Positions 721 to 5,287 of a stretch of 30,742 bases of DNA are shown here, piece after piece; position 1 is the stretch's first letter, and each line of letters opens with the position of its first letter. The DNA comes from an uncultured Candidatus Peribacteria bacterium (GTDB taxonomy: Bacteria; Patescibacteriota; Gracilibacteria; Peribacterales; Peribacteraceae): NCBI GenBank assembly GCA_964428105.1, contig CAYRWT010000001.1, positions 1 to 30,742 of the forward strand. The letters are read 5' to 3'. Under the pieces are notes generated by a model. The model was given only the letters and a program-made list of their open reading frames with translations, ran no database searches and was not told the DNA's origin. The position numbers and the translations under genes are program-made.

Positions 721-1317
721 ATGCTTACTCTCTCTCGTGCTACCACTTGGCTGAAAGACATCGCTCGTGATCACGATGAAATCCCAGCATTTCATGCGAC
801 ATATTTAGTTCTTTCCTTCGTCGTTGCTGCGATTTTTAGCTTAGGGTATTTCGCTATTTTGATTGGTGTGCACATGGCACTCGACTTCGTAAAGTATCGT
901 GATGTGTACAAATACAATATGTCATTAACATTGAAAGGTGTTCTACTCGAAAGTCTCTTCGATATCGTGCTCTTTATGGTTGCCCTTGTTTTTGCTATTT
1001 ATTTCCATCACACGTTTGCACTGACAGCGGTGAGTGGTCTTGCAAGGGCGGAGCTGACGATGATTCGTGCATTTGGAACGATTGTCCCAAAAATCGAAAT
1101 TTTCCAGCATGTGTTCTGGGTTTTTGCACACTTAGATACCTATCTTCACAATAAGAGCGCATCGAATCTCGCTAAACCTTTTACTTCAGGGCAGCGTTGG
1201 TGTCTCTACATTATTGCTTCTTGCAGCGTACTTATCGCTCTAGCATTCGCAATTTCGTACCAGAATATTGGCTTGCTACTCGCAATTTTTAGCAAAGAGT
1301 TCTCACTCGCCCTCTAG
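721..1317 (+). CDS. Hypothetical integral membrane protein (198 aa, several hydrophobic helices)
   Basis: Long ORF with several hydrophobic segments and its own consensus promoter. No family recognised. Confidence 0.8.
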   Translation: MLTLSRATTWLKDIARDHDEIPAFHATYLVLSFVVAAIFSLGYFAILIGVHMALDFVKYRDVYKYNMSLTLKGVLLESLFDIVLFMVALVFAIYFHHTFALTAVSGLARAELTMIRAFGTIVPKIEIFQHVFWVFAHLDTYLHNKSASNLAKPFTSGQRWCLYIIASCSVLIALAFAISYQNIGLLLAIFSKEFSLAL

Positions 1318-2336
1318 AGCTTTGGTGTTCCGGTAGGGTATAGCTCTTGTTCGATGGTTTTCATTGCCGCATGCCATTGCTGAAAGAATTTCTTTGATGC
1401 TGCGTTATGTTCGTCGGAGCCATAGCGTTTCTCTATATCAGAAAAACGCTCCTCAAGACTCACTATTTTCTCAAATGTTACACGTTTGTCGCTATATGCT
1501 AAGAGTTTCTGTTCAGTTGTTAGAGGAAGTGGTGATGGCAAACCCTCTTTTGCGCCATGAGTTGCAATAATACTCCCGATCTCACTAAATCCTCGCTCTA
1601 TGAGAAACCGTTCCGCAGCAGTTTCGTGTGGTGTCCCGTATCTTTCCTTGAGCATTGACCATATTCTTTTTTGTTCTTTTGTTGGCTGTACATAGCGATC
1701 ATCATCGAAGGATTTGAAATCGACAAATCGTAGCAGATCATGGAGCTTTGCAGCGGCAATGAGTGCATTTTTCCTTACAATGATACCACGACTGATACAG
1801 TCATTTGCAAGAATACCTGCCACCATAGCGACTGTTTCTGCATGGCGCTGAATATGCGCAGGCAGAGATACTTCCTTGATCCATTCCTTGATTTTTTGTT
1901 CTTCTGGAATAGCAATATCGCGAAATTCAATTCGTATCTCTCGTTGAGATTTTTCTTGTATTGTTGGCTGTAAATGTACAAATATTCCCGGTTCAGAGAA
2001 GAGTTCAGGTGCACGTTCTGGCCACTCAATGATTGTGAAACAATTTCTATCCTCTAGCTGCTGTATGAATTTTTTCGCTTCTGTTTCTTGTAAACGATAG
2101 AGATCGATATGTCGTACATTGGGATATTCATTGCAGAGGGTAAATGTCGGACTTGGAATCAGTGTAGAAATGCCTATGGCATGAGCAAAACCCTGTGTAA
2201 ATGTTGTTTTCCCTGCCCCGAGTTCACCCTGGAGAAGTATGGTGGTATTTTTTCTATAGAGAGATAGCGCAAGAGAGGCAGCGATTTTGGCTGTTTCTTG
2301 AGGATTCCTGAGGGTAAATTGTAACATTTCGATCAT
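1314..2336 (-). CDS. tsaE: TsaE (YjeE) t6A-biosynthesis ATPase fused to a C-terminal HD-superfamily phosphohydrolase domain (start 2336 or 2327)
   Basis: N-half: LQGELGAGKTT (Walker A), SPTFTL, HIDLYRL, IEW. C-half: H(AETVA)...LHD...PH...THG...YSDKRV...SLEERF, an H-HD-H-H-D pattern. Confidence 0.88.
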   Translation of the reverse strand: MIEMLQFTLRNPQETAKIAASLALSLYRKNTTILLQGELGAGKTTFTQGFAHAIGISTLIPSPTFTLCNEYPNVRHIDLYRLQETEAKKFIQQLEDRNCFTIIEWPERAPELFSEPGIFVHLQPTIQEKSQREIRIEFRDIAIPEEQKIKEWIKEVSLPAHIQRHAETVAMVAGILANDCISRGIIVRKNALIAAAKLHDLLRFVDFKSFDDDRYVQPTKEQKRIWSMLKERYGTPHETAAERFLIERGFSEIGSIIATHGAKEGLPSPLPLTTEQKLLAYSDKRVTFEKIVSLEERFSDIEKRYGSDEHNAASKKFFQQWHAAMKTIEQELYPTGTPKL

Positions 2337-2364
2337 TGACTATTTTGATAAAAAGTAATATAAT
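2336..2364 (+). promoter_or_regulatory. Near-consensus sigma70 promoter TTGACT-N17-TATAAT for the M23 peptidase gene
   Basis: TTGACT at 2336-2341, 17-nt spacer, TATAAT at 2359-2364, in the AT-rich divergent intergenic region. Confidence 0.75.
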
Positions 2365-2430
2365 AATATTATTAACTAATAAATTAATAAAAAAGTCTAA
2401 AAATCTATATCCATTCTACATCCTTCGCTC

Positions 2431-3837
2431 ATGGCGCTCCAGCGCGCAAATTTCAGTAAGCGGCCCGTCTACAAACCACGACAAGTGAGCCCGATGGTGT
2501 TTGCGCGAGAACGTGTTTCTTTCATCATCGCTTCGTTTACGTTACTTTCTTTTGTTATCGGTAACATGGTAGGACAACATGGTGTGTATGCATTCTGGAG
2601 GTCTGTGATGGGGAAAGGTGATGACTCAGTAATTGTCTTCACTGGAACGGTATCTCCAATTGCCCTTGTTCCAGATTACAGTCGTTGGAGTGGTGTGGGG
2701 ATAAAAGATGCAACATTCCGTCAGGTCCCACGAGACTTACTTGTCGAGTTGCCACACTATGATGCGAAAGTACTTTCTCATCGTGAGAATCATCTTCGTG
2801 ATGTGTATTCCGTAGGAAATCTTGGCAGCTATGCAACTGGCGAAGATCATGGCGGTAGCCACATTGGAGTGGATATTCGTACTCCAATCGGCACACCAGT
2901 ACGCTCTATCGCAAATGGTGTAGTAGAGAAAGTTGTCTCTCAAGAACATGGGTATGGTAACTACGTCGTTATTCGTCATCCAAATATGCCGGATCCTTCT
3001 GTAGCTGGAAATACGACTACACTCTACTCTGCCTATGCTCACCTCGATGTATCGATTGTGAGTGTTGGACAAGTTGTTTCTCGTGGTGAGCAAATCGGTA
3101 CTTCGGGTAAGACAGGATTTGCAGCAGGTCCTCATCTTCATTTCCAGATCGACTTAGATACTGCTCCATTCCATCCATACTGGGCATTTACGAGTACAGA
3201 GATGCGCAGTGCTGGTTTGGACTTCGTTGGCGCGATCAATGCAGGACTTGGAAAAGAGCGTGGAGAAGTCTTTACAACAAGCCCACTTGTCTATGTACAG
3301 CAATATAAGGATTTTGTACCTTCGACACTTGTTGCTCAAAACAATAGTAGTGCTGCTTCTGATCGTGTTTCGGCAAGAAGTTCTTCTCGTGCATCCAGTC
3401 TTGCAGCGCGTCGTGAAAATGCAGTGGTCGCAAAAGTTGTAACAAGTAGCAGTGCATCTTCTTCATCTTCGTCCTCTTCTTCGTCTTCATCATCGGTAGC
3501 ATCGCTACAACAATTTCCGATCGTTGTGAGCGGGAGATCGGATGTCTCATCACTCAAAATTGAGTCCATAAGCAAAGTTGCACGTGGTTGGCAGAAACTT
3601 CGTATTACAGCACTCGATGCTGCTGGCTCTGTTGTTACGAATCCAACATTTGCAGGTCGTCTCTATGTTGTTTCTCAATTTGGCGATGCAGAAATTCGCC
3701 CTCGTGAACTCTCTGCGTTGGACTTCGTAGGAGGAGTCGCAACGGTCAACGTTCTTCCGAAGGGCAAGAAAACACTTCTTATTAGCACAAAGGGAGCGAT
3801 AGAGTCAGTCAGTGGTCCGATCGTTGTTCAGAAGTAG
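2431..3837 (+). CDS. Membrane-anchored M23-family zinc peptidase (peptidoglycan endopeptidase-like) with Ser-rich linker and C-terminal beta-rich domain
   Basis: N-terminal hydrophobic helix, HIGVD (HxxxD), GYGNYVVIRH, YAHL, GTSGKTG, GPHLHF (HxH), then a poly-Ser linker. Confidence 0.88.
   Translation: MALQRANFSKRPVYKPRQVSPMVFARERVSFIIASFTLLSFVIGNMVGQHGVYAFWRSVMGKGDDSVIVFTGTVSPIALVPDYSRWSGVGIKDATFRQVPRDLLVELPHYDAKVLSHRENHLRDVYSVGNLGSYATGEDHGGSHIGVDIRTPIGTPVRSIANGVVEKVVSQEHGYGNYVVIRHPNMPDPSVAGNTTTLYSAYAHLDVSIVSVGQVVSRGEQIGTSGKTGFAAGPHLHFQIDLDTAPFHPYWAFTSTEMRSAGLDFVGAINAGLGKERGEVFTTSPLVYVQQYKDFVPSTLVAQNNSSAASDRVSARSSSRASSLAARRENAVVAKVVTSSSASSSSSSSSSSSSSVASLQQFPIVVSGRSDVSSLKIESISKVARGWQKLRITALDAAGSVVTNPTFAGRLYVVSQFGDAEIRPRELSALDFVGGVATVNVLPKGKKTLLISTKGAIESVSGPIVVQK
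3457..3495 (+). repeat. Low-complexity TCN-codon tract encoding 13 consecutive serines
   Basis: tct tct tca tct tcg tcc tct tct tcg tct tca tca tcg, in frame within the M23 gene. Confidence 0.85.
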
Positions 3838-4903: not shown

Positions 4904-5287
4904 GTGTTGGAGCGTACAGTCATCGGCTGCATCGGGACTCCAGATGACGGAGGACATCATACCTGTAGAAAGTTTTGGAATGCGATATTTTCTCAGCAGA
5001 ATATTTCTGCCACATTTGAAATTTACCCACTGACGTTAGCAAAAGATGTGCAATTGCGCCTTGCCGAGATGGAGCTCCATGCACGCCGAGCGTACATCCT
5101 CCATGGTACAGAATTACAGCGTTTAATCCTTCCATTCCTTGATCGGATTGATGCTCATGCTCAGCAAGAGCAGCGAGTTGATACTGTCCTCAATAATTCT
5201 GGGGTTCTTGTTGGCTACGCGTTAGAGACAAATGATGATCGCTATGCTGTTACTCCTCGTTTTGCACATTGGTTTCCTCGTAAGTGA
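4904..5287 (+). CDS. Stand-alone, degenerate shikimate-dehydrogenase (AroE) substrate-binding-domain-like protein (127 aa, GTG start)
   Basis: The layout IGCIGTP...NAIF...ATFEIY...LPFLDRIDAHAQQEQRVDTVLNNSGVLVGY parallels the AroE N-domain (LD.l...A..igAVNTi...g.l.GYNTD). Catalytic motifs and the Rossmann domain are absent. Confidence 0.6.
   Translation: MLERTVIGCIGTPDDGGHHTCRKFWNAIFSQQNISATFEIYPLTLAKDVQLRLAEMELHARRAYILHGTELQRLILPFLDRIDAHAQQEQRVDTVLNNSGVLVGYALETNDDRYAVTPRFAHWFPRK

Follow-up and report, generated by a model that had tools for sequence, protein, structure and literature searches.

A TsaE-HD fusion in Peribacteria

The window, as we call the whole 30,742-nucleotide stretch of DNA analyzed here (contig CAYRWT010000001.1 of assembly GCA_964428105.1, from an uncultured Candidatus Peribacteria bacterium), carries on its minus strand a single gene, tsaE-HD, whose product joins TsaE, the ATPase of N6-threonylcarbamoyladenosine (t6A) synthesis, to a C-terminal HD domain. 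We are nearly certain that this is a real and conserved fusion, and we tentatively read it as a bifunctional protein in which TsaE would work together with an active HD nucleotide phosphohydrolase. The gene is one open reading frame (ORF) encoding 340 amino acids, with an ATG start and no internal stop (Table 1). Contigs from three sequencing runs of three studies, comprising drinking-water and freshwater metagenomes, cross the junction between the two halves without gaps or indels (window positions 1612 to 2403, 1604 to 2007, and 1697 to 2450); one of these runs is possibly the sample behind the window assembly. A homologue search returned 944 proteins, the best 120 of which are 287 to 384 amino acids long at 86 to 100% query coverage (at least 93% in all but one). 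Where these 120 carry a name it is solely "TsaE," and the architecture is already in public databases under that annotation alone. In a scan of one genome per species, relatives were encoded in 175 species genomes. The best 80 of the 175 match over nearly full length, and all but three of those 80 are labeled Candidatus Peribacteria, Peribacterales, Peribacteraceae, or Peregrinibacteria. In the ESM Atlas, a cluster of 53 TsaE+HD proteins from Peregrinibacteriota matches with a template modeling (TM) score of 0.90. The full-length AlphaFold2 model has a mean predicted local distance difference test (pLDDT) of 92.7 and a predicted TM score (pTM) of 0.92, which implies a defined and confidently placed relative arrangement of the two predicted domains. 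An earlier note, made from the letters of the window alone, had proposed the fusion and suggested checking reads for a lost stop at the junction; the single ORF, the full-length homologues, and the indel-free contigs of three studies bear the proposal out.

The TsaE half and its partner genes

The N-terminal half is a complete TsaE, as the earlier note had described it. Pfam TsaE (PF02367) matches residues 10 to 126 (E value, 2.5e-29; 102.2 bits against a cutoff of 26.6), and TIGR00150 matches at 85.2 bits against a cutoff of 60.1. Besides the P-loop, the TsaE motifs S62-P63 (SPT-F/Y), H76-x-D78-L-Y80-R81 (H-x-D-x-Y-R), and I103-E104-W105 are invariant in 25 homologues. The modeled half folds like YdiB, Thermotoga maritima TsaE (from the TsaB2D2E2 complex), HI0065, and YjeE (Foldseek E values, 5e-10 to 7e-8); matches to 5np9, 6n9a_E, and 1htw have E values of 5e-10 to 2e-8, with TM scores by target of 0.65 to 0.77.

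The genome to which the window belongs (951 kb in 131 contigs, approximately 90% complete) also encodes the t6A partners TsaD (240 bits), TsaB (47 bits), and Sua5/TsaC (151 bits). The tsaE-HD product is its only TsaE above the cutoff, a second match of 21 bits falling below. TsaE is a P-loop ATPase that docks on TsaB-TsaD, where ATP hydrolysis resets the complex for the next round of t6A37 formation, and it shares its binding site on TsaBD with tRNA (PMC6614819). We consider it very probable that the TsaE half functions in t6A synthesis. A predicted complex of TsaD, TsaB, and full-length TsaE-HD gave a score of 0.01 and a mark of 0.32, which counts neither for nor against docking. Separately, two full-length TsaE-HD relatives (P0133 and P0218) have a degenerate P-loop (for example, REVEAETAA replacing GELGAGKTT) beside an HD half that scores strongly; some lineages may have lost the TsaE ATPase and kept the HD domain, sequencing error being another possibility.

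The HD half

The quoted motifs of the earlier note are all present in the C-terminal half: RHAETV (H165), LHD (H199-D200), PHE (H237-E238), THG (H260), YSDKR (D283), and the FDDDRYV insert. Together the six ligands H165, H199-D200, H237, H260, and D283 form the H..HD..H..H..D pattern of two-metal HD hydrolases. Across 261 HD domains, comprising fused and stand-alone relatives, these ligands are 99 to 100% conserved, which bears out the intact set described in the note, and the basic residues K284, R285, R297, and R304 are each at least 93% conserved. In the 25-sequence alignment, D140, P144, H165, H199-D200, H237-E238, H260, and D283-K284-R285 are invariant. The HD half is probably catalytically active.

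An HD-only AlphaFold2 model (pLDDT, 93.2) has an all-alpha HD fold. Foldseek against the PDB returned generic HD matches (HD-GYP, PgpH, and YqeK), all with E values above 3e-3. In VIA, Z scores of 8 to 12 link the half to many HD domains, the foremost being effectively tied: the HD domain of the glycyl-tRNA synthetase beta subunit (GlyRS-beta; Z, 12.1), BH1327 (Z, 11.0), GppA (Z, 10.8), and YqeK (Z, 9.9). Neither the HD half nor its profile found a meaningful match when searched by sequence against the PDB. The best AFDB cluster is a 203-amino-acid stand-alone HD protein (TM, 0.79; 30% identity). Among reviewed (Swiss-Prot) proteins, structural similarity is highest to MJ0778 and to the HD tails of tRNA Cm56 methyltransferases (Trm56) from Thermoplasmatales (TM, 0.63 to 0.65), clearly above that to HD-GYP and cyclic-dinucleotide phosphodiesterases and YqeK (TM, approximately 0.45). 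In NCBIfam the same half has weak matches: DVU_1551-family NTP transferases, in their C-terminal part; TIGR00295; and archaeal Trm56, in its HD tail. The HD half belongs to an uncharacterized HD subfamily that does not appear to be of the YqeK type.

Spread and organization within the class

We compared the coordinates of HD domain and TsaE profile matches in a sample of 201 genomes from the class. TsaE is present in 187 and this HD domain in 79. The HD match lies in an open frame of at least 300 amino acids in 62 of the 79 carriers, including 23 of 23 in the window's family (the window's own genome included) and most of those in three further families. Positions were compared in 14 of the 17 other carriers. 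In 13, a lower bound for the 17, the HD match begins 16 to 50 bases past the point where the same-strand TsaE match ends, and in one the two are on different contigs. HD is thus fused to tsaE or lies directly downstream of it in at least 75 of the 79 carriers. Families that lack it have plain TsaE frames of approximately 130 to 170 amino acids.

All five stand-alone HD genes that we inspected lie immediately downstream of a separate tsaE of 139 to 153 amino acids; four overlap it by 11 to 35 bases, and one is separated from it by an 8-base gap. In split forms the tsaE stop and the HD start fall at the junction of the fused gene, as mapped for the split site of one locus (L094). The earlier note had held that separate genes in relatives, together with a stop or indel in reads at the junction, would count against the fusion. 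Separate genes do occur in some lineages; since they overlap or abut, they strengthen the link between TsaE and HD rather than refute the fusion.

Among 1.84 billion representatives, an HD-only profile recovered 2,834 relatives at an E value of 1e-3 or less and 123 at 1e-30 or less. Below the tier of Peribacteria sequences stands a second tier of stand-alone proteins of approximately 200 amino acids and proteins of approximately 330 to 380 amino acids with Pfam-confirmed TsaE and HD. A search for longer proteins with this HD domain returned just further TsaE fusions. Fused and stand-alone forms are intermixed on a maximum-likelihood tree built from 109 HD domains, where well-supported branches force at least 13 changes of state; within the Peribacteria clade, some rows scored as stand-alone probably reflect truncated gene calls. 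Given this interleaving and the touching gene pairs, the pairing is old, persistent, and repeatedly remodeled between one gene and two, a classic Rosetta-stone signal. A functional link between the two domains, as first suggested from the window, thereby gains comparative backing from fusion in several families, touching tsaE-HD gene pairs elsewhere, and interleaving on the tree.

As a side observation, the HD matches of two genomes of the same class (G322 and G332, family f144) contain 10 to 13 in-frame TGA codons, and many TsaE matches of other families of the class contain 1 to 7. This pattern fits lineages in the class with a recoded UGA (code 25 type), in which a tsaE-linked HD would also be present.

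Possible roles of the HD domain

Under our tentative reading, the N-terminal domain, as the organism's only TsaE, would do its normal job of docking on TsaB-TsaD and resetting it by ATP hydrolysis, and the C-terminal domain would be a phosphohydrolase with a predicted six-ligand, two-metal site and a basic pocket of K284, R285, R297, and R304. The HD domain would remain physically joined to TsaE and act on an adenine nucleotide that the t6A cycle produces or consumes, hydrolyzing a phosphate ester or anhydride bond in it. Candidate substrates are ADP from TsaE, AMP or decayed threonylcarbamoyl-AMP (TC-AMP) from TsaD/TsaC, and a dinucleoside polyphosphate side product. The substrates put forward in the earlier note (TC-AMP, dinucleoside polyphosphates, and signaling nucleotides) are likewise conjectural. 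Such hydrolysis would clear or recycle a nucleotide in an organism dependent on nucleotide salvage. The fusion and its conservation, the integrity of the two domains, the partner genes, and the lasting linkage at gene level are established; that HD catalyzes a reaction, that it acts on a nucleotide, and that it is coupled to t6A synthesis are inferred. We slightly favor a small nucleotide as the substrate; a specific tie of that substrate to the t6A cycle is possible, on the unlikely side of even. Bolder still, and in our view rather unlikely, is that in one class of the candidate phyla radiation (CPR) HD serves the bacterial t6A machinery as a dedicated fifth component, whose substrate would be either tRNA itself or a nucleotide of the t6A cycle (TC-AMP, its breakdown products, or ADP or AMP left on TsaE/TsaD).

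Other partners of the subfamily bear on this choice. One clade is not tied to tsaE and includes stand-alone copies from another Patescibacteria family; its members adjoin or are fused with HAD_2 phosphatases, and one (in the P0252/P0240 set) is fused to a MazG NTP pyrophosphohydrolase domain. These sister clades and the best curated hidden Markov model (HMM) match, an NTP-transferase tail, all involve enzymes that handle nucleotides or phosphate esters, and they favor the reading of HD as a nucleotide phosphohydrolase. By analogy, the MazG, HAD_2, and NTP-transferase partners point to nucleotide or phosphate-ester chemistry. AFDB clusters also join the HD fold to Trm56 and to a tyrosyl-tRNA synthetase (TyrRS) fragment, partners that, by the same kind of analogy, point to tRNA. 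Outside the tsaE context, the subfamily is found fused to MazG (MazG-HD) and to HAD_2 (HD-HAD_2), and between dnaK and dnaJ there are HD genes that overlap or directly adjoin HAD_2 genes (P0252; P0240; L100, L101, and L102). This MazG/HAD_2-linked HD is a separate and likewise uncharacterized module.

Several points weigh against a bifunctional TsaE-HD nucleotide hydrolase. Pfam HD (PF01966) scores the C-terminal half alone at 14.9 bits, below its gathering score of 22. The earlier note had named HD-domain HMMs as a check on this half: the protein's own score falls short, but Pfam HD recognizes 15 of 25 close homologues (E value below 0.01), many carry a precomputed PF01966, and the model has the HD fold. 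Matches to solved structures are generic (Foldseek E values above 3e-3; tied VIA Z scores of 10 to 12) and give no clue to a substrate, and in the closest reviewed structural relatives the fusion partner is a tRNA methyltransferase, not a nucleotide enzyme, which hints at tRNA. Six-ligand HD sites are also found in HD-domain oxygenases. Furthermore, 122 of the 201 genomes sampled from the class, more than half, lack this HD and manage with the plain TsaE, so t6A synthesis as such does not require HD. Neighboring genes can also fuse repeatedly without mechanistic coupling.

The last point leads to the first of three alternatives, in which HD does general nucleotide house-cleaning or salvage and its gene lies downstream of tsaE by chance, single frameshifts fusing and splitting the overlapping genes without any link to t6A. 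The many flips between fused and split states would suit such a history, as would the strong synteny of the whole neighborhood, the occurrence of the same subfamily with unrelated partners (MazG and HAD_2) or alone and away from tsaE in other Patescibacteria, and the fact that most of the class lacks HD yet keeps TsaE. We nevertheless judge it distinctly unlikely: the near-constant placement of HD in or directly after tsaE among its carriers stands against chance, and the invariant D140 and P144, with the confident placement of the domains (pTM, 0.92), suggest a fixed interface under selection and not a loose tether.

Alternatively, HD may act on tRNA instead of free nucleotides, healing 2',3'-cyclic phosphate or 3'-phosphate ends or binding and handing over tRNA, with TsaE bringing it to the modification site. 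The Swiss-Prot matches to Trm56 tails and MJ0778 and the AFDB joins to Trm56 and the TyrRS fragment point this way, and 5 of the 25 members match NCBIfam PRK12703 (Trm56-HD). VIA ranks first the HD domain of GlyRS-beta, which contacts tRNA, and tRNA competes with TsaE for the same cavity on TsaBD (PMC6614819). However, the Trm56 and MJ0778 matches are distant (17 to 23% identity, with HMM scores far under cutoff), the GlyRS match is tied with many generic HD matches, an RNA-binding surface of HD is hypothetical, and in the nearer sister clades the partners are the small-molecule enzymes MazG and HAD_2. We therefore regard action on tRNA as quite improbable. A third alternative, that a lost stop or indel joined two genes in a metagenome-assembled genome, has in its favor that some relatives have two genes split exactly at the junction, but it is for practical purposes refuted by the contigs of three studies that span the junction without gaps, the HD in a TsaE-length frame in 22 of 22 sampled same-family genomes (the window's not counted), the nearly full-length matches in the best 80 of 175 species genomes, and the conserved junction residues, which leave it a negligible chance.

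Literature searches on TsaE/YjeE with HD or phosphohydrolase and on TsaE with Patescibacteria found no paper that describes or tests a TsaE-HD fusion, in line with the earlier note, which knew of no characterized example; a 2022 review of t6A does not mention the fusion, and searches for DVU1551 and for Trm56 with an HD domain found nothing relevant. The persistent attachment matters because ATP hydrolysis by TsaE, which resets TsaBD, is the least understood step of bacterial t6A synthesis, and here a predicted second hydrolytic site stays attached to TsaE, as a fusion or an overlapping pair, in several families. The result defines an uncharacterized HD subfamily with a clear partner and suggests a link of tRNA modification to nucleotide clearance or salvage in genome-reduced CPR bacteria. 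If HD were a fifth t6A component, the TsaE reset step would be chemically different in these bacteria, and the Trm56-HD fusion of Thermoplasmatales would mark a wider, unrecognized class of HD enzymes serving tRNA modification.

Gene neighborhood and habitat

In 79 of 80 related loci the divergent M23 peptidase gene next to tsaE-HD is retained, and it likewise stands beside the split tsaE/HD pairs of other families of the class (L093, L094, L095, and L098). A promoter scan of the intergenic region between them found no promoter-like site on the minus strand upstream of tsaE-HD, its matches being on the plus strand only. In Escherichia coli, tsaE likewise adjoins a cell-wall hydrolase gene, amiB. 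The window's M23 peptidase has a long serine run (approximately 17 S) in its C-terminal half. On the other side, the gene for the predicted 198-amino-acid membrane protein is retained downstream of tsaE-HD in 66 of the 80 loci. Farther along, a 127-amino-acid ORF (positions 4904 to 5287, plus strand) between a MraY-like gene and pgk is kept in 44 of 80. Sequence nearly identical to window positions 1200 to 2450 occurs in drinking-water, freshwater, and biofilter metagenome runs of seven studies, which suggests that the organism is widely distributed in fresh waters, both engineered and natural.

TABLE 1 Features of tsaE-HD and its flanks in the window
Feature	Position	Strand	Basis or remark
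tsaE-HD, whole gene	1314..2336	-	ORF list and translation; 340 codons, stop at 1314-1316
TsaE domain, residues 1-137	1926..2336	-	Pfam TsaE, TIGR00150, Foldseek
Walker A/P-loop, G37-ELGAGK-T44	2205..2228	-	G37, G40, G42, K43, and T44 invariant in 25 homologues
Junction, residues 138-159 (F-x-D140-I-x-x-P144 ... W152)	1860..1925	-	D140 and P144 invariant, W152 nearly invariant
HD domain, residues 138-338 of the C-terminal half (138-340)	1323..1925	-	HD-profile match, E value 6e-84
H165, first metal-ligand histidine	1842..1844	-	100% conserved in 261 HD domains
H199-D200, HD dyad	1737..1742	-	100% conserved; codons cat gat on the minus strand
H237, second-metal ligand	1626..1628	-	100% conserved in 261 HD domains
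H260, second-metal ligand	1557..1559	-	100% conserved in 261 HD domains
D283-K284-R285, last metal ligand and conserved basic pair	1482..1490	-	D283 100%; K284 and R285 at least 93%
Predicted membrane protein, 198 amino acids	721-1317	+	Convergent with tsaE-HD; 3' ends overlap by 4 bases
AT-rich intergenic region between the divergent tsaE-HD and M23 peptidase genes	2337..2430	.	Sequence
M23 peptidase gene	2431-3837	+	Divergent, upstream of tsaE-HD

Comparison with known systems

YqeK, a diadenosine tetraphosphate (Ap4A) hydrolase (TIGR00488; PDB 8wmy, 2o08, and 3ccg), shares the HD fold and the H..HD..H..H..D pattern with the HD half, and the earlier note had drawn the analogy to it. TIGR00488 is not among the NCBIfam matches of the protein at an E value of 1 or less, and a genome search with TIGR00488 misses the tsaE-HD gene. 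The structural likeness (8wmy, Z of 9.9 and TM of 0.47 to 0.49; the uncharacterized 2o08, Z of 11.0) is tied with those of the HD-GYP, PgpH, and GppA HD domains. We also considered whether YqeK complements the TsaE-linked HD across the class; it occurs in 3 of the 201 genomes and shows no complementary pattern. With generic fold similarity, no YqeK HMM match, and no complementation across the class, the analogy is not specifically supported.

Nearer curated relatives differ in the partner. The best curated HMM match is the DVU_1551 family of NTP transferases (NF045665), whose C-terminal part is matched by all 25 aligned HD halves (best E value, 7.8e-22); only profile positions 263 to 349 of 359 are covered, at 60 bits against a cutoff of 315, and the N-terminal partner there is a nucleotidyltransferase. 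Stand-alone MJ0778 (TIGR00295) has a similar fold (TM, 0.63) and a score of 21 bits against a cutoff of 172, so it represents a related subfamily to which TsaE-HD does not belong. The HD tail of the Thermoplasmatales tRNA (cytidine56-2'-O)-methyltransferase (Q6L171, Q9HJN6, and Q979R3) is likewise an uncharacterized HD domain joined to a tRNA-modification enzyme, although that protein is archaeal, the identity is 17 to 23%, and the partner is an S-adenosylmethionine-dependent methyltransferase, not an ATPase.

The N-terminal 137 residues agree with stand-alone TsaE (E. coli YjeE, Bacillus subtilis YdiB, and T. maritima TsaE) in family HMM, fold, P-loop, and the SPT and HxDxYR/IEW motifs. Those characterized proteins are single domains of approximately 150 amino acids, whereas TsaE-HD has approximately 200 extra C-terminal HD residues. 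Other TsaE fusions, to an acetyltransferase in Actinomycetota and to APH in Pseudomonadota, indicate that TsaE tolerates C-terminal partners, although the partner domains differ; as far as sampled, an HD partner of TsaE is confined to one class of Patescibacteria.

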